From contig CAWEHW010000004.1 in assembly GCA_963809045.1 (NCBI GenBank), positions 2,007,594 through 2,071,593 of the forward strand: DNA of 64,000 nucleotides, given 5' to 3'. The stretch's first letter is position 1; the number at the start of each line of letters is the position of its first letter. This stretch comes from an uncultured Chloroflexia bacterium (GTDB lineage Bacteria > Chloroflexota > Limnocylindria > Limnocylindrales > CSP1-4). The notes beneath the pieces were generated by a model. The model was not told where the DNA came from, made no database searches, and saw only the letters and a list, made by a program, of their open reading frames with translations. A program made the translations under genes and the position numbers. Shown in pieces: positions 9,283 through 63,355 of this stretch.

Positions 9283-10407
9283 TCAGGACGCCGGGCGCCT
9301 GACCCGCGGTGCGCGGGTGGCGATGAGCCGCCCATGCCGTCGGTCGTCCCACAGCTGCCAGTCGACGAGGATGGGGCTCGCCACGAAGATCGACGAATAC
9401 GTCCCCGACACGATGCCGATCAACAGCGCCAGGATGAAGTCGCTGATGGCGGAGCCACCGAACAGGAACAGGGCGAGGAGCGTCAGGACGACGGTCAGGC
9501 TGGTCATGACCGAGCGGGCGAAGGTCTGCAGGATCGAGTGGTTCACGATCGCGTCGATCGGCTCCCCGGCATGGCGGGCCTTGTTCTCGCGGACGCGGTC
9601 GAACACCACGATCGTGTCGTGCACCGAGAAGCCGATGACGGTCAGCATTGCCGTGACGAACAGGGCGTCGATCTCGACGTGGAAGAACGTGCCGAGGATC
9701 GCGAACGCGCCGACCACGACGATCACGTCATGGAATAGCGAGACCAGTGCCGTGATCCCGAACTTGACGTCGCGGAACCGGTACGTGATCCAGAGCACGA
9801 TCCCGAGTGACCCGACGATGATCAGGATGATCGCCTGGCTGATCAGGTCGGAGCTCACGACGGCTCCGATCGTCGTCAGGCTCCGCTGCTCGGCAATCGG
9901 TCCGAGCGCCGCTTCCAGCGCATCGGCGACCTCCCCGAGCTTGCCCTCGGTCGGGATCTCGGTGTTGCCGGTGGGCGGTGCGGAGGCTTCGGGCGAGGCC
10001 CCGGGAGACGCGCCCGGCGAGGCCGAGGCGCCCGGCGACGCGGACGGATCGATCGATGCCGATGGCGCAGCCGATGCGGACGCGGACGGTCCGGCTGACG
10101 GTGCCGCCGTCGGAGCCGGAGCTTCCTGGAGCCCGACGATCTGCTCGGTCTTGATCTCGATGAACCCCGACTGGGTTGCCAGGGTGACGGCCTCGAGGCC
10201 CTGCTCGGCGAAGACTTCCTCGACCTGTTCCGGGGTGACCGCCGGATTCTCGAACCGGATCTCCCATCGGGTGCCGCCCGTGTAGTCGATCGTGAACTGG
10301 AGGCCGGCATCCGTGAACGGTGTCAGCAGGATGAAGACCAGGCCCGGGATGGTGATGACGGCCGAGAAGATGTAGAAGAAGCGCCGTTTGCCGATGACGT
10401 CAAACAC
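9283..10407 (-). CDS. secF: protein translocase subunit SecF (with Ala/Ser/Pro-rich insertion in periplasmic domain)
   Basis: SecF N-terminus and TM topology (MFDVIGKRRFFYIFSAVITIPGLVFIL). It overlaps the secD stop by 8 nt. Confidence 0.9.
   Translation of the reverse strand: MFDVIGKRRFFYIFSAVITIPGLVFILLTPFTDAGLQFTIDYTGGTRWEIRFENPAVTPEQVEEVFAEQGLEAVTLATQSGFIEIKTEQIVGLQEAPAPTAAPSAGPSASASAAPSASIDPSASPGASASPGASPGASPEASAPPTGNTEIPTEGKLGEVADALEAALGPIAEQRSLTTIGAVVSSDLISQAIILIIVGSLGIVLWITYRFRDVKFGITALVSLFHDVIVVVGAFAILGTFFHVEIDALFVTAMLTVIGFSVHDTIVVFDRVRENKARHAGEPIDAIVNHSILQTFARSVMTSLTVVLTLLALFLFGGSAISDFILALLIGIVSGTYSSIFVASPILVDWQLWDDRRHGRLIATRAPRVRRPAS
9967..10125 (-). repeat. low-complexity Ala/Ser/Pro-rich coding insertion (APAPTAAPSAGPSASASAAPSASIDPSASPGASASPGASPGASPEASAPP) inside secF
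   Basis: A compositionally biased segment of about 53 aa within the SecF periplasmic domain. Confidence 0.8.
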
Positions 10408-51189: not shown

Positions 51190-52659
51190 CTAGTCCGCGC
51201 GATCGAGGTGCCGTCGGAGGGCATCCTGGACGAGCGCCGCGTTGGCCTGGCCACGGGTGGCCTTCATGACCTGGCCGACGAGGAACCCGACCGCCTGCGC
51301 CTTGCCAGCGCGGTAGTCGCTGACGGCCGCGGGATTGGCGGCGATAGCCTCCTCGATCGCCGCTTCGACGACCGAATCGTCCGTGATCTGGGTGAACCCG
51401 CGCGCGGTGATGATCTCGCGCGTTCGGCTTCCGCTGGCCACGTGCTCCTCGAGCACCTGTCGACCCTGGGCGCGCGAGATCGAGCCTTCTGTCACCGCCC
51501 TGACGATCGCGGCGAGCTCGGCTGGGTCGACCCGTGGCGGCTGGCCGGCTGCGTTGCGCAGGCGGAGGTAGTCCCCGAGGACCCAGTTGGCAACCGGCTT
51601 TGGCTCGAGTCCTGAATCGCTCGCCATGGTCGCTTCGAACAGGGCCGTCGCGTCCGGATCGGCCACCAGGACACCGGCGTCGTAGGCGCTCAGCCCGATG
51701 TCATCGCGGTACCGGCGCCGGCGCGCACCCGGCAGTTCCGGAAGGCGCGCCTGCAGCTCGGCCAACCAGGCAGGGTCCAGGTGCAGCGGCGGGAGGTCGG
51801 GCTCCGGGAAGTACCGGTAATCGTCCGAGGTCTCCTTGACCCGCATCCGGTACGTCGATCCGCGTTCCTCGGACCAGCCCCGCGTCTCCTGCAGCAGCGG
51901 CTCGCCGGCGTCGAGCGCCGCCGCCTGCCGTTCGATCTCGAAGTCGATCGCCCGTTCGACGGCCCGGAACGAGTTCATGTTCTTGACCTCGATCCGCGTC
52001 CCGTACGGTTCCGTGCCACGGGGGCGGAGCGACACGTTGGCCTCGACCCGCATCTGGCCCCGCTCCATATCCGCGTCGGATGCGCCGATCGAGCGCAACA
52101 GCAGTTGCAGCTCCTCGGCATACCGGCGCGCCTGCTCCGCGGTGCGGATGTCAGGCTCGGTCACGATCTCCATGAGCGGTGCCCCGGACCGGTTGAAGTC
52201 GACCAGGCTGACACGCCGCCCGGCGTCGTCCGTGGCATGGACCAGCTTGGCGGTGTCTTCCTCGAGGTGCGCCCGCGTGATGGTCACCGTGAATGGGCCG
52301 TCGGATGTGTCGAAAGTCAACCGGCCGCGCGACGCGAGTGGCAGGTCGTACTGGCTGATCTGGTAGCCCTTCGGAAGGTCCGGGTAGAAGTAGTTCTTGC
52401 GGTCCCAACGCGTGGCCCCTGGTGCGGTCGCCTCGATCGCCGCGCCGGTGGTCAGGACGTGTTCGACTGCCTGCTTGTTGATCGTTGGCAGCGCCCCGGG
52501 CAACCCGAGACAGACCGGGCAGACGTGCGTGTTCGGTGACGCCCCGTCGTAGTCGGTCGAGCAGCCGCAGAACATCTTCGAGGCGGTCCGAAGTTGCGAA
52601 TGCACCTCGATCCCGATCACCGCTTCGTAGCGATCGAGCGCGGTCGTGCCGTCAGCCAC
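51190..52659 (-). CDS. gatB: aspartyl/glutamyl-tRNA(Asn/Gln) amidotransferase subunit B
   Basis: YEAVIGIEVHSQL, CGCSTDY...CPVCLGLPGALP and a C-terminal YqeY-like tail. It is 489 aa. Confidence 0.95.
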   Translation of the reverse strand: MADGTTALDRYEAVIGIEVHSQLRTASKMFCGCSTDYDGASPNTHVCPVCLGLPGALPTINKQAVEHVLTTGAAIEATAPGATRWDRKNYFYPDLPKGYQISQYDLPLASRGRLTFDTSDGPFTVTITRAHLEEDTAKLVHATDDAGRRVSLVDFNRSGAPLMEIVTEPDIRTAEQARRYAEELQLLLRSIGASDADMERGQMRVEANVSLRPRGTEPYGTRIEVKNMNSFRAVERAIDFEIERQAAALDAGEPLLQETRGWSEERGSTYRMRVKETSDDYRYFPEPDLPPLHLDPAWLAELQARLPELPGARRRRYRDDIGLSAYDAGVLVADPDATALFEATMASDSGLEPKPVANWVLGDYLRLRNAAGQPPRVDPAELAAIVRAVTEGSISRAQGRQVLEEHVASGSRTREIITARGFTQITDDSVVEAAIEEAIAANPAAVSDYRAGKAQAVGFLVGQVMKATRGQANAALVQDALRRHLDRAD

Positions 52660-52733: not shown

Positions 52734-53678
52734 CTAGGGCGCCGCCTGGTAGATCCTCACGTAGTCCACCACCATCGATGCTGGGAACTCGGTGTCGGGT
52801 GAGACCGGGCCGCCGAAATTGCCGCCCACGGCCAGGTTGAGCAGGAGGTAGAACGGGTGGTTGTACGCCCATTCGTTCGGAGCGACGTCCGCTGGTGTGG
52901 CCGTGTGGTATTCGGTCCCATCAACCGTCCAGACGATGTGATCCTCCTCCCAGTCGACGGCGAAAACGTGAAAGTCGTCGGCGACAGGCGCCGGCAGATC
53001 GATGGTCGTGCCGTACCCGTTCGACCCCGAGTACCCCGGTCCGTGGAGCGTCCCGTACAGCTTGTTCGGTTGCCGGCCGACGTTCTCCATGACATCGATT
53101 TCGCCGGAAGCGGGCCACCCCACGCTGCCGATGTTGGCCCCGAGCATCCAGAATGCCGGCCACAACCCAACGCCCGATGGGACCTTGATGCGCGCCTCGA
53201 CGCGGCCGTAAGTCAGCTCGTACAGGCCACGCGTCAGCAACCGCGCGGACGTGTACTTGCACGGACCGTAGTAGCAATCGAGCCCCGGCTCGGCGGCACG
53301 GGCGGTGATGACGAGGTTCCCGGCACCGTCGGTCGCTGCGTTCTCAAGGTCCTCGGTGTAGTACTCCAGCTCGTTGTTGCCCCATCCCGCGACGCTCTCG
53401 GCGGTCCCGTCACCGTGCTCGTAGCCCCAGTGTTCCGGGTTTGGCGGCGTACCGGCAGGCTCGTCGAACTCGTCGCCCCACACGAGCGCCAGGCCGTTCG
53501 GCGCCGCCGAGACGGCCGGCGATGAGGTGGGCACGGCTGTTGGGCTCGCCGTGGCTGGGGCAGTCGGTGGTTCGGTTGGCTGAGTCACGTTCGATCCTCC
53601 GCATGCGACGACGGTGGCAGCGAGCGCGACAGCCGCCACGCTCGCGACCGGATGCCGCCATCCGTTCCGGTCAGCCAT
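52734..53678 (-). CDS. secreted glycoside hydrolase family 16 endo-beta-1,3-glucanase (laminarinase-like) lipoprotein
   Basis: A lipoprotein signal (VAAVALAATVVACGG), a Pro/Thr/Ala linker and the GH16 catalytic motif EIDVME. I chose the ATG at 53678 (ORF track start 53831). Confidence 0.85.
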   Translation of the reverse strand: MADRNGWRHPVASVAAVALAATVVACGGSNVTQPTEPPTAPATASPTAVPTSSPAVSAAPNGLALVWGDEFDEPAGTPPNPEHWGYEHGDGTAESVAGWGNNELEYYTEDLENAATDGAGNLVITARAAEPGLDCYYGPCKYTSARLLTRGLYELTYGRVEARIKVPSGVGLWPAFWMLGANIGSVGWPASGEIDVMENVGRQPNKLYGTLHGPGYSGSNGYGTTIDLPAPVADDFHVFAVDWEEDHIVWTVDGTEYHTATPADVAPNEWAYNHPFYLLLNLAVGGNFGGPVSPDTEFPASMVVDYVRIYQAAP

Positions 53679-56088
53679 TCGACGGTCCCACCGCGAACCC
53701 GTTGCGTTGCCGGATGGCGTACTCGAGCGCCCAGATCGCGAGCGGCCGCAGATACAGGCTGGCGCGGAAGTTGCCGTCGATGTCATACGCCTCGGGGGTC
53801 CTGAACCAGAACCCGCGGCGGTAGGTGACATCCTGGGCGCCCCACGCCGTACGCCAGGCCTCCTCGACCAGGCCGCGCCCGAACATGCACGCCGCCAATG
53901 CGTATGTCACGCCAACCCAGACCTCCGCCGACTGGAGGCTGGAATCGTCAACAGATCCGTCGGCTCGGACACCGTTGACCGCGCCCATCTCCCCCGCCGC
54001 GAACCCCATCACGTTGGCGGCAAAGATCGTCCGCAGGGTCGTCGCCACGCGATCTGGAGCGACGAGATCGCCGAGGCCCGTGGCGTCGGCGTACCACTGG
54101 CCGGCGAGCTGACCGGCCATGACCGACGATGCCGATGGACCGTCGCTCGTGTCAAACCGATAGTGCGACCCGGTCCACAACTTCGCCTCGAACGCGGCCC
54201 GGGCATGGGCTTCTAGCCTCCGAAGTCGTTCAACTGTCGACGTATCGCGCGCGATGGTCCCGATCTCGGTCGCCGCACGCAGCGCCGCCAGCCAGAGCGC
54301 ACCGCTGTAGGCGCTCGGGCCGCGCATCGCCCACGTGTCGAAGGTCTGATCAGGCACGCCGTCGTGCTCGGGCAGGCCGTCGCCGTCACGGTCAAAGCCC
54401 TCGATGTAGTCGAGGGCCTGCCGAACGGCCGGCCAGGCTTGCCGCGCAAGGGCTTCGTCGCGGAGGACGAGCACGTCGCGCCAGACGTGGAGCACGAACT
54501 TGCTGTTGAGGTCCTTCCAGATGTTGGTGTCCTGGTAGTGGTAGTGGTTCGGGCGGAGGAAGGGATCGCCCCCGGGACCGCCGACGTCGTGGGGCGCGGC
54601 ACCGGCGACCTTTCGGACCGCCGTGAGTCCGTCCGCCTCGAGCCTGACGACTTCGGGATCATCGATGGCGATGGTCTCGACCAAATCGCCGATGACCTGG
54701 CGTTCGAGCTGCGGCCAGAGCATCAGGAGCGCCCATGATGCGTAGAAGTTGACGTCGACCGTGTTGTAGAACTGGTAGTCGAGACACTCGAGGATCGCGA
54801 ACCGGCCAAGGTCGCCCTGGCTCAGGGTAGTGGTCCCGCTCGACCCCGCCAGCGACCCGGCAGGGCCGGTTGCCGACGTCGGCGTTCCGTCCGTCCAGAC
54901 GGTTCCGCCATCGACGAGGTAGTACAGCTCGTTGAGGAGGGCGGCCTTGTACCACTCCGGTCGATCGGGCGCGTCGAGGATTGGCGCCTGCCAGGCATCG
55001 ATCGCGATTGCCCATTCGGTGCGCCGCTGGAGCGCCTCCGTGGCCATCGTCCAGGCGCGCTGGCCGTCTTCGCCATAGAACTTCGTGTATCGCCGGCGCC
55101 AGCGCGTCCCAGCGCCGAACTCGACGAGCGGCAGGTCCCAGGCTAGGGCGAATGCGAGTTCCCGTGACTCGCCCGGGGCGAGGTCCACGGTTGCGGCGAT
55201 GGCGGAACCGACGGCCTGTCCAGGCCGGCTGGTGGCGCGTGTCGACGTGGCGGACGAGAGGCGACCGTCGTCGGCGAAGTCCGCCCAGAGCGCACCGGCG
55301 CCGTCGATCTCGAAGATTTCATGACGCGTGATCTGGACGCCCTCGGCGTTGGGCGCGACGACCGCGAACGACCCGTTCCAGGCTTCGCCCTCCGCCCCCT
55401 CCGGCCCGAACATCAGCACGCCCGAGACATCGTCGCGGTCGATCCCCTCGTGACGATGGCCTCCGACACGGTCGCAGCCCTGCGCGCGACCAATCACGTT
55501 CTGCCAGGTGAACATCAGCCCAACCTTGACCGGGTCCGGGCCGATGTTGTCGACCCGCCACTCGAAGACTGCGACCGGGTAGCTGCTCTCCCGGTAGTTG
55601 CCCGGGATGATCGGGCTGAATTGCTTCTGGACCAGGCGCACCGGCAGGGCATCCCAGTCGTACTCGAACCAGGCGCTCGGAAACAGGCCGTGATAGGTCC
55701 CCGCCCCGATCGGCCAGTCCCAGCCCCACTCTGGCAGCGTCCCCGGGTCGGGACGGAACGTCGTCAGGACGTGAGCGGATCGTGCCATGCCTTCCCGATC
55801 TTCGGACGACCGCTCGACGAAGAGCGAGAACTGGCTGGCGGCGATCGATTCGAAGCGGTGATCTCCGGGATCCAGGTGCCAGCGAGCGAAGTCGCCGCGA
55901 TGCGTCCGCCCGATGCTCCCGGCGCCCAAACCCCCCAGCGGGACGCCGCCCCACGGCCCGTCGTCGATCAGGGGTTCTCCGTCGGTCACCCGTGGATGGC
56001 CTGCGGCATCGAAGGGTAGCCCGAGGGGCCGGCGCCAGGCGATGGCCGGCAGGCCCCGGTCACCGTCTCGTGCCGACGAGTCACCCAC
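53671..56088 (-). CDS. glycoside hydrolase family 116 (GBA2-type beta-glucosidase/glucosylceramidase-like)
   Basis: The GH116 N-terminal domain signature (WGGVPLGGLGAGSIGRTHRGDFARWHLDPG) and a C-terminal (alpha/alpha)6 catalytic domain. It is 805 aa with no signal peptide. Confidence 0.8.
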   Translation of the reverse strand: MGDSSARDGDRGLPAIAWRRPLGLPFDAAGHPRVTDGEPLIDDGPWGGVPLGGLGAGSIGRTHRGDFARWHLDPGDHRFESIAASQFSLFVERSSEDREGMARSAHVLTTFRPDPGTLPEWGWDWPIGAGTYHGLFPSAWFEYDWDALPVRLVQKQFSPIIPGNYRESSYPVAVFEWRVDNIGPDPVKVGLMFTWQNVIGRAQGCDRVGGHRHEGIDRDDVSGVLMFGPEGAEGEAWNGSFAVVAPNAEGVQITRHEIFEIDGAGALWADFADDGRLSSATSTRATSRPGQAVGSAIAATVDLAPGESRELAFALAWDLPLVEFGAGTRWRRRYTKFYGEDGQRAWTMATEALQRRTEWAIAIDAWQAPILDAPDRPEWYKAALLNELYYLVDGGTVWTDGTPTSATGPAGSLAGSSGTTTLSQGDLGRFAILECLDYQFYNTVDVNFYASWALLMLWPQLERQVIGDLVETIAIDDPEVVRLEADGLTAVRKVAGAAPHDVGGPGGDPFLRPNHYHYQDTNIWKDLNSKFVLHVWRDVLVLRDEALARQAWPAVRQALDYIEGFDRDGDGLPEHDGVPDQTFDTWAMRGPSAYSGALWLAALRAATEIGTIARDTSTVERLRRLEAHARAAFEAKLWTGSHYRFDTSDGPSASSVMAGQLAGQWYADATGLGDLVAPDRVATTLRTIFAANVMGFAAGEMGAVNGVRADGSVDDSSLQSAEVWVGVTYALAACMFGRGLVEEAWRTAWGAQDVTYRRGFWFRTPEAYDIDGNFRASLYLRPLAIWALEYAIRQRNGFAVGPSNG

Positions 56089-56962
56089 GCAGCGATCCCG
56101 CTGTGAACCCGCCGATGATGTACCGCTGCAGGAACAGGTACAGGACGACCATGGGCGCCGCGAGCATCAGGACGGCGGCCGACAGGAGCGGCCAATCGTT
56201 GCCGTAGATGCCGGTGAAGACGATGAGCCCACGCGTGATCGGGTAGTAGTTCTCGTTGGTCAGGTAAATGTTGGCCAGGACGAGCTCGTTCCAGACGCCG
56301 ATGGCGTGCAGGATCGCGACCGTTGCGAGCGCCGGCTTGGTCAGGGGCAGGACGATCCGGACCAGGTACCGGATGTAGCCGGATCCCTCGAGCGCGGCGG
56401 CCTCGTCCAGCTCGCGCGGGATCGTCCGGATGTATCCCACGAGGATCAGCACGCCGATCGGGTTCGTGAGAAACAGGAGGATGTAGCCGATCTGCGTGTT
56501 GTAGAGGCGCAGGTTGAGGAGGAGCTGGAACTGCGGGATCAGCGCGACCGGGAGGAACAGCGCGATCACGAACAGCAGGTACAGCCAGTTCCAGCCGCGA
56601 ACGAACCGTCGGGCGATGGCGACCGACAACGGGAAGGCCGCCGCGAGGTAGACGATCGTCGCCACCGCGGCGTACAGGATCGTGTTGACCAGGTACCGCG
56701 GAAAATCGGCCTTGTCCCACGCCTCGGCAAAGTTCTCGATGGAGAACGTGGTCGTCAACGCCACCGGATCCTTCGCGAACTCCGGCGACGTCTTGAGGGC
56801 GGTGTTGATCAGCATCAGCATCGGCCCGATGTAGAGGACCGCGAGCGCGATCAGCAAGGCGTAGGTGCCGACGGTCCACCAATCGAGACGCCGACGACCG
56901 GGGCGGACGCGCGCTGCCCGGCTCGTCGTGGCCAGTGGATCGGCCGCAGCGACGCTGTTCAT
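56081..56962 (-). CDS. carbohydrate ABC transporter permease (MalG-like)
   Basis: An EAA-type loop (LDEAAALEGSG) and six TM segments. I chose the internal ATG at 56962 (ORF track start 57184), which abuts the upstream permease stop. Confidence 0.85.
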   Translation of the reverse strand: MNSVAAADPLATTSRAARVRPGRRRLDWWTVGTYALLIALAVLYIGPMLMLINTALKTSPEFAKDPVALTTTFSIENFAEAWDKADFPRYLVNTILYAAVATIVYLAAAFPLSVAIARRFVRGWNWLYLLFVIALFLPVALIPQFQLLLNLRLYNTQIGYILLFLTNPIGVLILVGYIRTIPRELDEAAALEGSGYIRYLVRIVLPLTKPALATVAILHAIGVWNELVLANIYLTNENYYPITRGLIVFTGIYGNDWPLLSAAVLMLAAPMVVLYLFLQRYIIGGFTAGSLRG

Positions 56963-57888
56963 CCCAGCAACCGCTCTTCCCGGCGGCGCAGCAGGTACTG
57001 CGCGGTGACGCCGACGACGAAGACGACGACGAACAGCACCACCGCGGCGGCCGCCCCGTACCCCTGCCGGAAGCTGTTGGAGGTCGTGCTGCCGGACGTC
57101 TGGCCGAATGCCTGGGCGTAGACGACATAACCGAGCACCTGCGTGCCGGGCCGGTAGTTGATCAGGACCAGGAACAACTGCCACGCCTGGAGCGAGCCGA
57201 TGATGCTGAGGATGAGGTTGGTCGTCACGGCGGGGGTCAGGAGCGGCCAGGTGACGTGCCAGAACGACTGCCGGCGGCTCGCACCGTCGATCCGGGCCGC
57301 CTCATGGAGCTCGTCCGGGATGGTCTGCAAGCCGGCCAGGAAGATGACCATCGTGATTCCCATGTTCGACCAGATCTGGACGATCGTGACCCACAGGAAC
57401 GCGCCGAGACCGGCGCCACCCAGCAGTTCGGACTCGATGCCGAACACCTGGAGGACCGAGTCGACCGGACCGTCCAGCGGATAGAGGAACAGGCGCCAGA
57501 CCAGGCCCTGGATGGTCACGCCCAGGATGACCGGCAGGAAGAACAACGCCCGGAACCAGCGGGTGCCCGCCAGCCGCTGGTTCAAGAGGATCGCGGCCAG
57601 CAGTCCGAGGACGAACTGGACCACCGTCACGAGAACGCAGAACAGGATCGTCCGCAGGAGCGCTTCGAGATTCTCCTGCGCGGCGGCCCCCCGGAACAGG
57701 AACTCCTCGTAGTTGTCGAGGCCGATGAAGTTGAGCGGCTTCGGGGTCAGGCCATTGGTGTCCGTCAGCGAATACAGGACGGTCGCGAGCGACGGTAGAA
57801 GCGCGAACACCAGGTACAGCAGCAGACCCGGAACGACGAGGCCGTACGGGATCGCGCGGGCCGCACCCTGGCCGAACAGGTACCTCAT
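56959..57888 (-). CDS. carbohydrate ABC transporter permease (MalF-like)
   Basis: A polytopic protein with an EAA loop (LHEAARIDGAS). It is 309 aa. Confidence 0.85.
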   Translation of the reverse strand: MRYLFGQGAARAIPYGLVVPGLLLYLVFALLPSLATVLYSLTDTNGLTPKPLNFIGLDNYEEFLFRGAAAQENLEALLRTILFCVLVTVVQFVLGLLAAILLNQRLAGTRWFRALFFLPVILGVTIQGLVWRLFLYPLDGPVDSVLQVFGIESELLGGAGLGAFLWVTIVQIWSNMGITMVIFLAGLQTIPDELHEAARIDGASRRQSFWHVTWPLLTPAVTTNLILSIIGSLQAWQLFLVLINYRPGTQVLGYVVYAQAFGQTSGSTTSNSFRQGYGAAAAVVLFVVVFVVGVTAQYLLRRREERLLG

Positions 57889-57978
57889 CGCTCCTCGTCC
57901 ACGGTCGGTGGCAGTGAGGATCGGCCCCGCTGGAGGAAACGGGGCCGATCCATCGGTTGGAGTACGGTGATCGTCGGG

Positions 57979-59346
57979 CTAGTTGGCGTCCAGGCCAGCC
58001 TGCAGGTCCGCTTGCGCGGCGTCTGCGGCCTGCTGGGCGGTGTCGAACTCGCCGAACGGCTTGAAGAACGATGCGTACGGGAAGGCGAACTGGCCGGCTC
58101 CGGTGGGCGGGATCCAGTACCGCTCCCAGCCGATCCGGAAATCACCGAGGCTTGGAGCAATCGCGCGGCCAAGCGCCGTGTCGAGCGTCGCTCCAGGCTG
58201 GGTCGGGATCGCCCCGACGGCGGTCACGAACTCCTGGTAGGTCGCGGGCTCGGAGAACTCCGCGAGATAGGCCAGCGCAGCGTCCCTGTTGGGCGTGTCG
58301 GCAGCGATCGTCCAGCCCTGGTCGTACTTGCCGAAGACGTACTTGTTTTCGGCGGCGTTGTCGGTACCCGGGAACGCAATGAACGTCCAGTTGAAGGCCG
58401 GCTCGGCCGCTTCGATCGCCGGCGCCAGCCAGGTGAAGCCCGACAGGGTGGCGACCTCGCCCGATGCGAATCGGCCCGGAGCTCCGTCGGCCGGGATGCC
58501 CGTGGCGCCCGACTCGATCATCTCGGTGGAGAGGATCCGCAGCTTCTCCCACATTTCGAGGCTGGTCGCGTCGTTCCACTTGATGGTGCCGGTCCAGAGG
58601 CCTTCGACGAGGGCGGCCTGGTCCGGGTACGCGGATCCGAGGATCCCGTAGCCGGTCACGAAGATCGGCCAGACATCCTGACCACCTGCGGTCATGCACG
58701 GAATTCCAGCCGCATCGAAGGCCTGGCAGGCGGCGACCAGCTCGCTCCATGTGGTTGGGACCGTGACGTTGTGAGCGGCAAAGAGATCCTGGTTGACGTA
58801 CAGGCCGCTGAAGCCGACGCGTCCGAGGTTGATCTCGTAGACCTTGCCGTTGTATGTGCCGGCATCGCGGATCGCCGCCTCGTCGTACAGATCGACAAAC
58901 GGCTGATCGGTGAGGTCCATGAGGCTGCCGGCATCGGCCAGCGTCTGCCAGATCGGCGGGGTCACGCCCTGCATGTACGGCTGGACGCCGGTGTCGAAGG
59001 CAAACATGTCGACGACGTCGACATCCTTGGCGGCCAATCGGGTCTGCGTGATCGTCGCGAGCTCGTTGGGAGCAACGATCGCCATGTCCACGGTGACACC
59101 GGGATGGGCCGCCTCGAACCGGTCGTTGAACGCTTCCATGAAGTCGGTGAACGGCGGGTTCTGGTGGACCAGCACGCGTAGCGTGCCTTCCGGCAGGGCC
59201 GCGCCGCCGTCTGCGCTCGGGCTGGCCACATCGGCGCTCGCCGGCGCATCCGTGCCGGCGATTGGTGGGTCCGTTGGTGCCGTCGTGCCTCCGCACGCGA
59301 CCAACGCGATCGAAGCGGTGAGTAGGAACGCCAGGATCTTCCGCAC
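57979..59346 (-). CDS. extracellular solute-binding protein family 1 (sugar ABC transporter substrate-binding lipoprotein)
   Basis: A lipobox (LVACGG) and an SBP_bac_1-type sequence. The GTG start is preceded by GGAGGAGGA at 7-nt spacing. Confidence 0.85.
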   Translation of the reverse strand: MRKILAFLLTASIALVACGGTTAPTDPPIAGTDAPASADVASPSADGGAALPEGTLRVLVHQNPPFTDFMEAFNDRFEAAHPGVTVDMAIVAPNELATITQTRLAAKDVDVVDMFAFDTGVQPYMQGVTPPIWQTLADAGSLMDLTDQPFVDLYDEAAIRDAGTYNGKVYEINLGRVGFSGLYVNQDLFAAHNVTVPTTWSELVAACQAFDAAGIPCMTAGGQDVWPIFVTGYGILGSAYPDQAALVEGLWTGTIKWNDATSLEMWEKLRILSTEMIESGATGIPADGAPGRFASGEVATLSGFTWLAPAIEAAEPAFNWTFIAFPGTDNAAENKYVFGKYDQGWTIAADTPNRDAALAYLAEFSEPATYQEFVTAVGAIPTQPGATLDTALGRAIAPSLGDFRIGWERYWIPPTGAGQFAFPYASFFKPFGEFDTAQQAADAAQADLQAGLDAN

Positions 59347-59414
59347 GGCTGTTGTCCTCCTCCTGCTCGAGTCCGGACCCGCGAGGTTCGTGGGTGACGG
59401 ACGTCCTGGACTTG

Positions 59415-59435
59415 TGCGGCCGCCCAGCGGCCGCA
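59415..59435 (-). terminator. hairpin TGCGGCCGC-CCA-GCGGCCGCA (9-bp stem built from two NotI-type palindromes) between lacI and the sugar-binding protein gene
   Basis: A perfect 9-bp stem with a 3-nt loop, lying between the lacI stop (59457) and the SBP start (59346). Confidence 0.4.
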
Positions 59436-59456
59436 GGTTTGGTTGACGGTCGCGAA

Positions 59457-60512
59457 TCAGGTCTCGTTCGTGGGCAGCCCTCCGGTTGACTCCCTGACCA
59501 CGAGCTCCACCGCAAGGACGACCTTTCGAGCGACGTCCTCGGGCGCTTCGATGTCTGCAAGCAGGAGGCTCACCAGTTCGCGGCCCATCACGTCCAGCGA
59601 CTGCTTGATGCTTGACAGCGTCGGCCGGGTCGTTCGCGCGATCGGCGAGTCATCGAACCCGATCACGGCGACGTCACCCGGGACACGCCGGCCCGATTCG
59701 GCGAGCACCGCCAGCGCGCCGGCCCCCATCAGGTCATTGGCCGCGAAGACGGCGTCGAGGCCGGGCTCGCGCCTGAGCAGCTCGGCCATGGCCTGGGCGC
59801 CACTCTCCTCGGTGAAATCGCCCGCTACGACGAGCGCGTCGTCGAATGGCAGGTTGGCCTGCAACAGGGCGTCCCGATAGCCCTCGCATCGATCGTTCGC
59901 GGCGCCCATGTCCGCTGGGCCGCTGATCGTCGCAATGCGCCGCCGACCCAGTCCGACGAGATGGCGTGTGGCGAGCAGCCCGCCGCCCCGGTTGTCGTTG
60001 TCCACGTAGCTCACGCGTGCGCCAGTCGGCGGTCGACCGCCGACGACGACCGGGACGCCCCTGCGGCGAAGCCGCTCCGGGAGAGGGTCGTCCCCGTGAA
60101 GCGAGTACATGATCACGCCGTCAACGTGGCCGGCCAGCAGGTACGGCTGCAGCTCCCGCTCCTCCGCGTCGCCCTGCGGGAGGAAGAGGACGAGCTTCTG
60201 GCGGCGGGTCGTGAGTGCCGCGCTGACGCCGCGGAGCACCTGGGCGAAGAACGGGTCACCAAAGACCCGCGACGTCGGCTCGGGGATGAGCACGCCGATG
60301 GAGTCGCTTCGCCTGGTGACCAGGCTCCGTGCGGCGACGTTCGGCACGAACCCGAGTCGTTCGATCGTGCGCTCAACGGCACGCTTCGTCGCCGAGTTGA
60401 CCCGCGGGTTGCCATTGACGACGCGCGACACGGTCGCCTGCGAGACACCGGCCGCCTTTGCGACCTCGTCCATCGTGACGCCGCGGTTGTTGCCGTCCTG
60501 CTTGGTCGACAT
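59457..60512 (-). CDS. LacI-family transcriptional regulator
   Basis: An N-terminal HTH (TMDEVAKAAGVSQATVSRVVNG) and a periplasmic-binding-like sugar domain. It is 351 aa. Confidence 0.9.
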   Translation of the reverse strand: MSTKQDGNNRGVTMDEVAKAAGVSQATVSRVVNGNPRVNSATKRAVERTIERLGFVPNVAARSLVTRRSDSIGVLIPEPTSRVFGDPFFAQVLRGVSAALTTRRQKLVLFLPQGDAEERELQPYLLAGHVDGVIMYSLHGDDPLPERLRRRGVPVVVGGRPPTGARVSYVDNDNRGGGLLATRHLVGLGRRRIATISGPADMGAANDRCEGYRDALLQANLPFDDALVVAGDFTEESGAQAMAELLRREPGLDAVFAANDLMGAGALAVLAESGRRVPGDVAVIGFDDSPIARTTRPTLSSIKQSLDVMGRELVSLLLADIEAPEDVARKVVLAVELVVRESTGGLPTNET

Positions 60513-60544
60513 CCGGCGAGCCGACTCCCTCTATTGGCGCCCTT

Positions 60545-60560
60545 GTGAATGCGCATTCAC
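60545..60560. promoter_or_regulatory. LacI-type operator, perfect 16-bp palindrome GTGAATGCGCATTCAC
   Basis: A perfect inverted repeat about 33 nt upstream of the minus-strand lacI start (60512). Confidence 0.6.
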
Positions 60561-60667
60561 CGATTGATTCGCAACGATACAGCCACGTGTCAAGAGAGCG
60601 CATTCACGCCCGATTCCTCGCCCCGACCGGATCTCCGACGAGCTGCAAACCAGGCGTGGTCCGCCTT

Positions 60668-60679
60668 GAGAGCGCTCTC
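60668..60679. promoter_or_regulatory. LacI-type operator core, perfect 12-bp palindrome GAGAGCGCTCTC (flanked by TTGACA)
   Basis: A perfect palindrome in the divergent lacI intergenic region. A hybrid half-site GAGAGCGCATTCAC also occurs at 60594..60607. Confidence 0.5.
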
Positions 60680-60710
60680 TTGACAGACCGTGATATGGTC
60701 CGTCACAAGC

Positions 60711-60726
60711 GTGAGAGCGCTCTCAC
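60711..60726. promoter_or_regulatory. LacI-type operator, perfect 16-bp palindrome GTGAGAGCGCTCTCAC
   Basis: A perfect inverted repeat 19 nt upstream of the plus-strand lacI start (60745). Confidence 0.6.
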
Positions 60727-60744
60727 AACTGGAGACCGAACGGC

Positions 60745-61797
60745 GTGACCCCGAGCAGCGACCGCACCCGTCGCAACGGCACGACCCTCGAGAACGTCGC
60801 CCTTCAGGCCGGCGTCTCGCGAGCCACCGTTTCGCGCGTGGTCAACGGCTCGCCGAAGGTCAGCCCCGATGTCCGGCGCGACGTCGAAGCCGCGATCGAG
60901 CGCCTCGGCTATGTCCCCAATCGTGCCGCTCGCAGCCTCGTCACCCGGCGCAGCGGCTCGATCGGACTGGTCATCACGGAGCCCACCGGCCGCCTGTTCT
61001 CGGACCCGTTCTTCCCGCGAGTCCTGCGCGGGATCAGCGCGGAACTGACCGCTCGCGACCTGCAGCTGATCCTGCTCATCCCGAACTCACAGGCCGACGT
61101 CCGCCGGACGGGCGACTATCTCTCGGCCGGGCACGTCGACGGGGCCGTGCTCGTCAGTCTCCACGGCGAGGATCCACTCCCCGAGCGCTTGTCCCAGGCG
61201 GGCATTCCGCTGGTGCTCGTCGGCCGCCCACTCCGTGGCGTCTCGGCCAGCTACGTCGATGTCGACAACCGCCAGGGTGCGCGGAGCGCGGTCGAACACC
61301 TCATCGCGACAGGACGCCGCGCGATCGCGACGATCGCCGGTCCCCAGGACATGGCCCCCGGCGTCGACCGGCTGGCCGGCTACCGGGAAGCCATCGGCGA
61401 CGCGTTCCGGGCGACCGATCCCGCCCTCGAGGCAACCAGCGACTTCACGCAAGAGGGCGGCGCCAAGGCGATGAGCCGGCTGCTCACGAAGCGTCCCGAT
61501 CTCGATGCGGTCTTCGCGGCCTCCGACCTGATCGCGGCCGGCGCCTTGTCGAGCCTGACCGCGGCCGGGCGACGTGTTCCGGACGACGTGGCGATCGTCG
61601 GCTACGACGACTCGCCGGTCGCGACGTCCACCCACCCACAACTTTCGAGTGTTCGTCAGCCGATCGAGGAGATGGGCCGCGAGGTGGCCCGCCTGCTCGT
61701 CGAAGCGGTCGAAGGCACGGACCGGGTCCAACGGCGCGTGATCCTGGCCACCGAGCTGGTGAAGCGCGCCTCGAGCGCCGGGAGGCCTTCGCCCTGA
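60745..61797 (+). CDS. LacI-family transcriptional regulator
   Basis: An N-terminal HTH (TLENVALQAGVSRATVSRVVNG). It is 350 aa and divergent from the other lacI. Confidence 0.9.
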   Translation: MTPSSDRTRRNGTTLENVALQAGVSRATVSRVVNGSPKVSPDVRRDVEAAIERLGYVPNRAARSLVTRRSGSIGLVITEPTGRLFSDPFFPRVLRGISAELTARDLQLILLIPNSQADVRRTGDYLSAGHVDGAVLVSLHGEDPLPERLSQAGIPLVLVGRPLRGVSASYVDVDNRQGARSAVEHLIATGRRAIATIAGPQDMAPGVDRLAGYREAIGDAFRATDPALEATSDFTQEGGAKAMSRLLTKRPDLDAVFAASDLIAAGALSSLTAAGRRVPDDVAIVGYDDSPVATSTHPQLSSVRQPIEEMGREVARLLVEAVEGTDRVQRRVILATELVKRASSAGRPSP

Positions 61798-61909
61798 GCC
61801 GGCCGGCGCCCGGCGGGCGGCCATCGATGCGAGGCCACCCTAACCATCAGTCCAGGTTCCTGGAGAGGAGAGATCAGATCGATCTCTGTATCGCGTGGAG
61901 GAGTCTGCA

Positions 61910-63355
61910 GTGAAACACCGAACAAGGTCTGCGCCACAAACCCTGCTCGTCCTGGTCGGCATCATGGCCCTCCTGGTCGCAGCCTGCGGTGGTGGCACCG
62001 CGACCACCGCACCGTCCGCGGCGCCGTCACAGGCCGCGGCCACACCTGAGCCCACGGCGGCCGAATCGACGGCAGCGGAGCCGGTCGAGATCGAATGGTT
62101 CGTCGGTCTCGGGACGGGCGAGAACGAGGAACAGATCCCGATCGAGGAAGCCGTGGTCGCGGCGTTCAACGAGTCCCAGGACGCCGTCGAGCTGATCCTC
62201 ACGGTCGTCGACAACACCGAGGCGTCCGACACGCTCGCCACCCGGATCGCCGCCGGCGACTCGCCGGACATCATCGGACCGATCGGCGTTCGCGGCCTGC
62301 AGTCGTTCGGCGACCAGCTGCTGGACATCAGCCCGTACATCGGCAGCGTCGACCTTTCGGAGATCGACCCCGCGCTGATCGATGTCTACAACGTCGGCGG
62401 CAAGCAGATCGGTATCCCGATGGCCGTCTACTCGTCGTTCTTCTACTACAACAAGTCGCTCTTCGACGAGGCCGGCCTGGCCTATCCGCCCCATGAGATC
62501 GGGGCCCAGTACGACGGCAAGGAATGGAACTGGGCGACCGTTCGCGAGCTCGCCATGAAGCTGACCGTCGATGGCAGCGGCAACGATGCCACGAGCAGCG
62601 ATTTCGACCCGGCGGACATCGTCCAGTACGGCCTCGACGCCCAGTTCACCGAGAACGACGCGCGGGCTTGGTCGACGATCTTCGGCGGCTCAGGCTCGGC
62701 CGTGGCCGACGACGGCACGACGGCCCAGTGGCCGGACAACTGGCGCACCGGGCTCCAGTTCATGTACGACGGCATCCATACCGACCACTTCATCCCCGAC
62801 CAGACGGCCGTGCAGGCCCTGGCGGATGGCAACACCTTCCAGTCAGGCCGGATCGCGATGGATGTCGTGCACCAGTGGTACACCTGCTGCGTCTACCCGG
62901 GTGAAGGCGATCCAGCCGTCTCCGACTGGGATATCGCGGTCCTGCCCGTCGGACCGGATGGCAACATCACGTCCAAGCTGCATGCCGACACGATCGGAAT
63001 CATGGACAGCACGGCAGACCCCGAAGCCGCGTTCGCGGCGCTGTCCTTCCTCGCCGCGTCCCCGGAGCTGATCCAGACGTGGGGCGCCATGCCGGCGGTC
63101 GAGAGCCAGCGACCGACCTTCTTCGCCGGACTCCAGGAGCGCTTCGCGCCGCTCGAGATCGACTGGAACGTCTCGTCGTTGATGCTCCAGCACCCCGACA
63201 ATCCCAGCCATGAAGCGTTCATGCCGAACTTCCAGGAGGCCGACTCGGCCAACAAGGATCTCGGCAGCAAGATCTGGACGACCCCGGGACTCGACCTGGG
63301 CTCCGAGATCGATGCCCACGTGGAGACGCTCCAGGGCATCTTCGCCGGAGGCTAG
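61910..63355 (+). CDS. extracellular solute-binding protein family 1 (sugar ABC transporter substrate-binding lipoprotein)
   Basis: A lipobox (LVAACGG). The GTG at 61910 is preceded by GGAGGAG at 7-nt spacing. The ORF track start of 61895 lacks an RBS. Confidence 0.85.
   Translation: MKHRTRSAPQTLLVLVGIMALLVAACGGGTATTAPSAAPSQAAATPEPTAAESTAAEPVEIEWFVGLGTGENEEQIPIEEAVVAAFNESQDAVELILTVVDNTEASDTLATRIAAGDSPDIIGPIGVRGLQSFGDQLLDISPYIGSVDLSEIDPALIDVYNVGGKQIGIPMAVYSSFFYYNKSLFDEAGLAYPPHEIGAQYDGKEWNWATVRELAMKLTVDGSGNDATSSDFDPADIVQYGLDAQFTENDARAWSTIFGGSGSAVADDGTTAQWPDNWRTGLQFMYDGIHTDHFIPDQTAVQALADGNTFQSGRIAMDVVHQWYTCCVYPGEGDPAVSDWDIAVLPVGPDGNITSKLHADTIGIMDSTADPEAAFAALSFLAASPELIQTWGAMPAVESQRPTFFAGLQERFAPLEIDWNVSSLMLQHPDNPSHEAFMPNFQEADSANKDLGSKIWTTPGLDLGSEIDAHVETLQGIFAGG

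Follow-up and report, generated by a model that had tools for sequence, protein, structure and literature searches.

The region between two divergent lacI genes, lacI_1 and lacI_2, was analyzed in a 64,000-nt stretch of contig CAWEHW010000004.1 from an uncultured Chloroflexia bacterium; this whole 64-kb stretch is called the window. The intergenic region probably consists of two independent autoregulatory modules, i.e., mirror copies of one layout standing back to back. Each module comprises a promoter-like element and two operators, and each LacI protein is predicted to read its own operator class. A hybrid operator, which joins one half of each class, is best read from the compared sequences as a half-converted, weakly constrained relic of an ancestral class-2 operator and not as a purpose-built heterodimer site.

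Three palindromes and one hybrid site had been reported here in a preliminary description of the window, and all four sequences were recovered exactly where it had placed them. The same description had proposed divergent LacI regulators, and both flanking open reading frames (ORFs) indeed encode full-length members of the LacI/GalR family. PF00356 was matched at E = 7.7e-16 and 4.8e-17, and Peripla_BP_1/3/4 domains spanned the full length of both proteins (Pfam). LacI_1 and LacI_2 are 55% identical. The elements are as follows.

59457..60512, minus strand: lacI_1, LacI-family repressor gene, 351 amino acids (aa), recognition helix GVSQATVSRV, first gene of its operon.
60545..60560: proximal operator of lacI_1 (class 1), perfect 16-bp palindrome GTGAATGCGCATTCAC, 16/16 positions invariant in 19 distinct upstream regions.
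60574..60579, minus strand: -10-like hexamer TATCGT (ACGATA on the plus strand), preceded by TG, the putative -10 element of the lacI_1 promoter.
60588..60593, minus strand: TTGACA of the lacI_1 module (TGTCAA on the plus strand), abutting the hybrid site.
60593..60607: distal operator of lacI_1 ("hybrid"), minus strand GTGAATGC/GCTCTCt, with the 14-mer GAGAGCGCATTCAC at 60594-60607.
60608..60665: junction between the modules, conserved in neither sequence nor length.
60666..60681: distal operator of lacI_2 (class 2), tTGAGAGC/GCTCTCtt, its final two bases being the TT of TTGACA.
60680..60685, plus strand: TTGACA of the lacI_2 module.
60691..60699, plus strand: extended -10-like element TGaTATGGT (TGnTAnnGT) of the lacI_2 promoter, hexamer at 60694-60699.
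60711..60726: proximal operator of lacI_2 (class 2), perfect 16-bp palindrome GTGAGAGCGCTCTCAC.
60745..61797, plus strand: lacI_2, LacI-family repressor gene, 350 aa, recognition helix GVSRATVSRV.

A minus-strand TTGACA from 60593 to 60588, the second in the region, had not been seen before and was found by a repeat scan and a TTGACA scan. Because of this element, each gene is assigned its distal operator, the hybrid in the case of lacI_1 and the central palindrome in the case of lacI_2. A TAnnGT hexamer is located exactly 8 nt downstream of each of the two TTGACA. The plus-strand layout is TTGAGAGCGCTCTC-TTGACA-gaccgtga-TATGGT-N11-GTGAGAGCGCTCTCAC-N18-GTG (lacI_2), and the minus-strand layout is GTGAATGCGCTCTC-TTGACA-cgtggctg-TATCGT-N13-GTGAATGCGCATTCAC-N32-ATG (lacI_1). 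Both 16-bp palindromes have the central CG and the position of LacI/GalR-type operators, that of lacI_1 lying 32 bp and that of lacI_2 18 bp ahead of the start codon. The hybrid has a class-1 sequence in its promoter-distal half and, in its promoter-side half, exactly the class-2 sequence. The lacI_2 distal operator contains a perfect 12-bp core, GAGAGCGCTCTC, at 60668-60679, and the 14-mer TGAGAGCGCTCTCT at 60667-60680 agrees with the class-2 palindrome at 13/14 positions. TTGACA had been said to overlap this central operator. The plus-strand copy abuts the 12-bp palindrome and overlaps the 14- or 16-mer by 1-2 bp.

The -10-like hexamer is followed after 11-13 nt by the proximal operator of lacI_1, which would therefore cover the transcript start. 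The start of lacI_2 is predicted at a conserved C-purine near 60706-60707. Ahead of the lacI_2 proximal operator, C(A/G)AGC is conserved, as recognized by eye and not tallied. It fits a start 7-8 nt after TAnnGT; the proximal operator would then extend from about +5 to +20. By the same predicted start, the distal operator of lacI_2 would be centered near -34.

Both modules were conserved in related genomes, of which the closest belong to uncultured Chloroflexota, i.e., "uncultured Chloroflexia" metagenome-assembled genomes (MAGs) and Candidatus Limnocylindrales. The window does not come from an actinobacterium. The loci compared carry L numbers. Orthologues of lacI_1 (64-87% identity) followed by the same order of substrate-binding protein (SBP), permease, permease, and glycoside hydrolase (GH) family GH116/GH16 genes were found in L001-L008 and L035, and further lacI_1-type loci (L121-L133) were added. 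The lacI_2 relatives comprised 80 soil-metagenome loci with 59-97% protein identity. All 19 distinct lacI_1-type upstream regions showed TTGACA-N8-TAT(c)GT-N11-13-GTGAATGCGCATTCAC with an invariant 16-mer, the proteins being 64-100% identical. These 19 sequences were gathered by matching TTGAC followed by any base, and TTGACA was invariant among them. The lacI_2-type layout, seen in 42 distinct regions, was GCGCTCTC-TTGACA-N8-(TGn)TAnnGT-N11-12-GTGAGAGCGCTCTCAC, and TGn with TAnnGT 8 nt from TTGACA was the consensus of the 42 sequences. The proximal operator GTGAGAGCGCTCTCAC was identical or one base off in these compact-architecture regions (proteins 59-97% identical), and GCGCTCTC-TTGACA was present in 41/42, the variation of the distal operator lying mostly in its left half. 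The operator and promoter blocks are considered to be under selection, because substitutions have saturated the intergenic sequence around them.

The palindromes alone are not evidence of function. In such GC-rich DNA, perfect palindromes occur frequently: the window has 53 with arms of 6 nt or more, against about 42 expected from shuffles, and 8 with arms of 8 nt or more, against about 3.8 expected. Palindrome statistics were therefore rejected as proof of function, and these counts, which include perfect palindromes of 12-16 bp, are what could be said for the palindromes as chance features of GC-rich intergenic DNA with no regulatory role. Function is argued instead from two other observations. 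When either 14-mer was searched with up to 3 mismatches, all matches in the 64 kb fell within the one 232-bp intergenic region. The preliminary description had proposed looking for additional copies, and the matches found in the window are all in this regulatory context; no further operator copy was found ahead of the SBP genes or elsewhere in the 64-kb window. The lacI-SBP gaps also contained no operator. In addition, the 16-mers are unchanged or nearly so across dozens of loci while the flanking intergenic sequence has changed to saturation. A chance origin is therefore regarded as extremely improbable.

The suggestion that each paralogue has its own operator type held across the relatives. 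The orthologues of lacI_1 (63-100% identity) always had GTGAATGCGCATTCAC, and their recognition helix was GVSQ[AS]TVSRV, except in one protein. The lacI_2 orthologues and the wider R-type family had GVSRAT[VA]SRV, and nearly all carried GTGAGAGCGCTCTCAC or a close variant. About 50 lacI_2-type regions had GTGAGAGCGCTCTCAC or differed from it by one base. The first residue of the recognition helix, aligned with Tyr17 of Escherichia coli LacI, is Gln in LacI_1 and Arg in LacI_2, and the position aligned with Leu6 is Met in LacI_1 and Leu in LacI_2. Among the matches listed in a survey of 120 homologues, the 78 that were at least 63% identical to LacI_1 all had Q except one with H. The homologues with 62% identity or less and with the DNA-binding end present all had R, two others being N-terminally truncated and unreadable. 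Every Q protein with DNA in hand had a class-1 proximal operator, and every close R protein had class 2. The class-2 core GAGAGCGCTCTC was also found near several actinobacterial homologues in L014-L030, of which the helices that were read were SR[AS]T. The exception with H is P0058, a LacI_1-type homologue whose specificity residue is His and not Gln (GVSHATVSRV).

Counted from the dyad, the operator classes differ at NT-4 (G in class 2, A in class 1) and NT-3 (A in class 2, T in class 1). Both keep G at NT-6 (T-G-A-x-x-G-C), and both proteins have TVSRV. They belong to the TVSR recognition subgroup, with TVSR at AA-17 to AA-20 and Arg AA-20 matched by G at NT-6. The family-wide LacI code of Camas et al. 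links AA-15/16 to NT-5/4 by co-variation and assigns G at NT-6 to Arg AA-20 (PMC2978694). The Arg/Gln swap found here is at AA-15 in that numbering. The code table of Camas et al. has no entry for (R,A) or (Q,A), so it was not usable as an independent prediction. In a neighbor-joining tree, which carries no support values, the Q-type proteins were nested within the R-type diversity, and class 2 is therefore probably the ancestral operator class.

It could also be that the two repressors are not insulated and that both read both classes, as GntR does on IdnR sites. The co-regulation would then be redundant and the classes would be affinity variants. The classes differ at just two of seven half-site positions, cross-recognition by close LacI-family paralogues has been documented (PMC4052901), and the published recognition code has been called degenerate (PMC2978694). 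However, Q went strictly with class 1 and R strictly with class 2 over about 60 distinct promoters, and no proximal operator was of mixed type. Both proximal palindromes are perfect and invariant, or nearly so, for their own class, which argues for selection on the class-specific NT-4 and NT-3. Shared recognition is thus held to be improbable, and insulation of the two repressors is the preferred explanation.

The hybrid was previously interpreted as a site of heterologous or heterodimeric binding. The comparison did not support this; the hybrid is the distal operator assigned to lacI_1, and it is present where lacI_2 is not a neighbor. The exact hybrid GTGAATGCGCTCTC-TTGACA was found in L122/L123 and L127 with no adjacent lacI_2, and (A/G)TGTATGCGCTCTC-TTGACA in L001, L004, L005, L008, L128, and L129/L130, again with lacI_2 as a neighbor in none. 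The promoter-side half of the lacI_1 distal site was CTCTC in 12/19, CATTC in 3/19, and other sequences in 4/19; CTATC, CATGC, CAGTC, and CAATC occurred in other lineages. In the GVSQS subclade (L006, L007, and L131-L133), the distal site was fully class 1, with the CATTC half. Almost all R-type relatives had GCTCTC-TTGACA. Because of this, the simplest history would be a conversion in three steps: the ancestor of lacI_1 would have had a class-2 distal site, its promoter-distal half would have turned into class 1, and the promoter-side half would then have stayed unchanged, drifted, or been converted later.

The pairing of the two modules is also secondary, as judged from the gene order of the compared loci, and would have come about through genome rearrangement. 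The other genes of the locus are as follows.

51190-52659: gatB, on the far side of the lacI_1 cassette (52734-60512) from lacI_2.
52734-53831: GH16 gene of the lacI_1 operon.
53671-56088: GH116 gene of the lacI_1 operon.
About 56081-56962 and 56959-57888: two permease genes of the lacI_1 operon.
57979-59346: SBP gene of the lacI_1 operon, second gene, after lacI_1.
61895-63355: SBP gene behind lacI_2.
From about 63460: permease gene behind the lacI_2 SBP gene, leaving the window unfinished.

For the permease gene at about 56081-56962, the listed ORF (56081-57184) overruns into the preceding gene. In 25/80 metagenome loci and in L135, lacI_2 was divergent from gatB. In the window, gatB and lacI_2 are separated by the whole cassette of lacI_1, SBP, permease, GH116, and GH16 genes, and it is reasonable to consider that the cassette was inserted or translocated here because lacI_2 usually faces gatB. 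Among the loci compared, lacI_1 and lacI_2 were paired only in the window, L009, L041, L043, and L121. Stand-alone lacI_1 cassettes were found in L001-L008, L035, and L122-L133, and other neighbors of the cassette elsewhere included DUF2461, TetR-family, and guanylate-cyclase-domain genes. The spacers between the paired modules were unrelated sequences in the five divergent loci. The center-to-center distance from the hybrid to the lacI_2 distal operator was 73 bp in the window, 151 bp in L009, 71 bp in L041, 140 bp in L043, and 138 bp in L121. The 73 bp of the window correspond to about 7 helical turns; a fixed phasing of these two operators was rejected on this range of 71-151 bp.

These observations bear on the view that the hybrid is a functional heterodimer or heterologous site that cross-regulates the beta-glucan and second transporter operons. 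A perfect class-1 half is joined to a perfect class-2 half, and mixed dimers are conceivable given the identity of the two proteins. Simulations of a duplicated lac repressor and operator predict transient non-palindromic operators for which the heterodimer is the best binder (PMC1464816), and GCTCTC is exact in 12 of the 19 distinct lacI_1 distal sites. However, the same or a nearly identical hybrid exists in the loci named above where lacI_2 is not adjacent, and in other lineages the class-2-like half decays or turns into the class-1 CATTC while the operon persists. The lacI_2 side has no reciprocal hybrid, its distal site being class 2 in both halves. The modules share neither a conserved spacing nor a common sequence, and the divergent pairing comes from a secondary insertion. 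The cross-regulation of the beta-glucan locus and the second sugar transporter through the hybrid, which had been expected, is not supported for these reasons, and a heterodimer site is considered very unlikely. The data obtained here can be explained without heterodimers. If it were true, the site would be a natural example of an intermediate frozen during the co-divergence of repressor and operator.

Back-to-back modules with a relic hybrid are thus the preferred explanation, and as a whole it is held to be likely, with several points that weigh against it. The pairing of Arg with G and of Gln with A would follow from general protein-DNA chemistry, the (R,A) and (Q,A) classes being missing from the code table. 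The exact GCTCTC in 12/19 distal sites could reflect selection, e.g., contact with LacI_2, and not inertia. The 8-nt spacing between TTGACA and the hexamer misfits a single sigma-70 complex, which makes the -35/-10 assignment and the operator positions relative to +1 uncertain. The function of the sites in these uncultured organisms is predicted from their sequences. Finally, the tree puts one Q-type group (P0050, P0057, and P0071) among R-type sequences. This placement may come from domain shuffling between the paralogues or may be an artefact of the tree. The three proteins (L129/L130) have a GVSQATVSRV DNA-binding end and a class-1 operator upstream, and their genes precede a 509-aa gene that takes the SBP position and has no Pfam match.

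The promoter spacing is the only feature of the locus that is likely to puzzle a specialist. The spacer is 8 nt in both modules, in place of the 16-18 bp of canonical sigma-70 promoters. By established promoter geometry, the sigma-70 holoenzyme would be unable to contact both hexamers at such a spacing. The 8-nt spacing was present in 62 distinct sequences beside these operators and once elsewhere in 778 kb of sequence, and the arrangement of the window recurred in L001-L009, L035, L041-L092, and L121-L133. Other TTGACA/TAnnnT pairs in the same loci had a spacing peak at 16-18 nt. In a promoter scan, no sigma-70-type site with a spacer of 16-18 bp was found in 59300-62000. The pairing of TTGACA with a hexamer 17-18 nt downstream was rejected, the hexamer being neither -10-like nor conserved in orthologues when compared by eye. 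A genome-wide TTGACA-N8 promoter type was also rejected. Outside the LacI modules of the compared loci the spacing was 16-18 nt, including two examples in the related MAG L008. Some more distant relatives, i.e., L098, L117, L119, L120, and the TASR group, had promoter hexamers with the canonical spacing of 17-18 nt, placed between two operators. From this distribution, the compressed form reads as a stable, selected variant.

The distal operator occupies the expected -35 region of the TAnnGT promoter and abuts TTGACA. It seems rather unlikely that the TTGACA, 8 nt from an extended -10 and always fused to the distal operator, is an element of undescribed promoter logic. One possibility of this kind is that RNA polymerase has two mutually exclusive registers, about one helical turn apart, chosen by repressor occupancy. 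Alternatively, a further factor may dock at the TTGACA. If such logic exists, the TTGACA in the LacI modules would not be an ordinary -35 hexamer, nor would it be a leftover of evolution.

The proposed working of the modules is as follows. In each module, an operator on either side of the core promoter would bind the repressor of the gene that follows. When inducer is lacking, each repressor would sit as a dimer on its two operators, silencing the gene that encodes it and, with it, the ABC-transporter (ATP-binding cassette) and glycosidase genes of the same transcript. LacI_1 would control the beta-glucan operon with GH116 and GH16, and LacI_2 would control a second operon of beta-glucoside type. 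The repressors would be kept apart by the swap of Arg in LacI_2 and Gln in LacI_1, matched by operator positions 4 and 3. Such autoregulation is frequent; of the LacI-family regulators studied, 72% control their own genes through palindromic sites (PMC4052901).

The effectors can be proposed from the genes behind the regulators. GH116 and GH16 behind LacI_1 point to products from the degradation of beta-1,3 or mixed-linkage glucan, and the genomic context of ABC transporter, GH116, and GH16 genes suggests beta-glucan-derived oligosaccharides as effectors. In relatives, the lacI_2-type operons contained lacI, SBP, permease, permease, and GH116 genes. The second sugar transporter is therefore probably part of an operon for beta-glucosides or cello-oligosaccharides, with another GH116 gene as its last gene. 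A scan of the relatives for targets other than lacI found one, a divergent GH6 cellulase gene in L134 (8498-9772). Upstream of it, at about 9860-9890 on the minus strand, is TGAAAGCGCTCTC-TTGACG-N7-TAGATT. GH6 is probably a further regulon member in L134, and its site suggests a CebR-like cello-oligosaccharide or beta-glucoside regulon. No NCBIfam equivalog was above cut-off for the regulators.

The nearest known system is CebR/CelR of Streptomyces and Thermobifida, a LacI-family regulator of cello-oligosaccharide uptake and the cellulase regulon with the operator TGGGAGCGCTCCCA. The targets of Streptomyces CebR are genes of the cebEFG-bglC type, and cellobiose or cellotriose governs this control. 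The class-2 operator TGAGAGCGCTCTCA agrees with this CebR box, as quoted in PMC4358012, at 12/14 positions and shares the core GAGCGCTC. Class 1, TGAATGCGCATTCA, agrees with the same box at 8/14 positions (PMC4358012). This is resemblance to the CebR/CelR operator and not identity. More distant relatives carry GTGAGAGCGCTCCCAC, of which one half is CebR-type. As in CebR/CelR, the regulator stands beside an ABC sugar transporter and a beta-glucosidase, and the divergent GH6 cellulase gene of the relative L134 has the same operator type. Unlike CebR/CelR, the phylum is Chloroflexota, NT-5 is A and not G, and the glucosidase is GH116; the two are likened by operator and gene context.

The proteins share with E. 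coli LacI and GalR/GalS the dimeric helix-turn-helix with a periplasmic-binding-protein fold, and the palindromic operators have the central CG. The Arg in TVSR reads G at NT-6, and the first two residues of the helix set NT-4/5 specificity (PMC2978694). A main operator near +11 and an upstream auxiliary operator would also be common to these systems. Unlike in E. coli LacI, the auxiliary operator is just 45-48 bp from the main one, and the proteins of 350-351 aa align end to end and appear to have no obvious extra C-terminal tetramerization segment. Looping is therefore not implied. The repressor gene is here the first gene of its own operon, unlike in the E. coli systems. GalR and GalS share operators, whereas the paralogues described here appear insulated.

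The locus also resembles the outcome of a simulation by Poelwijk, Kiviet and Tans in 2006 (PMC1464816), in that the key recognition residue and the key operator bases have diverged after duplication of a repressor and its operator. A non-palindromic, half-converted operator is present, as in the simulated intermediates (PMC1464816). In that model (PMC1464816) the asymmetry was transient and palindromes were recovered, but the asymmetric site here persists in many lineages. Unlike in the model, the asymmetry here is confined to the auxiliary position, the main operators having been converted completely.

As a regulatory device, the locus is ordinary, i.e., LacI-family repressors that would autoregulate sugar-uptake operons through palindromic operators. 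It is a clean natural example of the insulation of a duplicated repressor and operator, with one Arg/Gln swap, two operator positions, and an auxiliary operator that is half-converted. It also adds two recognition classes that are missing from the published table, (R,A) reading AG and (Q,A) reading AA at NT-5/NT-4. Finally, it gives predicted regulons of beta-glucan use for uncultured soil Limnocylindria-like Chloroflexota.

Some minor features of the lacI_1 operon were observed. The tblastn matches of SBP1 and LacI_1 were fragmented in the MAG contigs of L001, L008, L009, and L035, which suggests assembly frameshift errors and not real pseudogenes. The longest perfect palindrome of the window, the 20-bp GTCGGCGGTCGACCGCCGAC, is located at 60025-60044 within the lacI_1 coding sequence. 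The 110-bp gap between lacI_1 and its SBP gene contains a GC-rich hairpin, TGCGGCCGC-nnn-GCGGCCGCA, at 59415-59435. It is not a canonical terminator, because the coding (minus) strand has no T-run, and it could modulate read-through.

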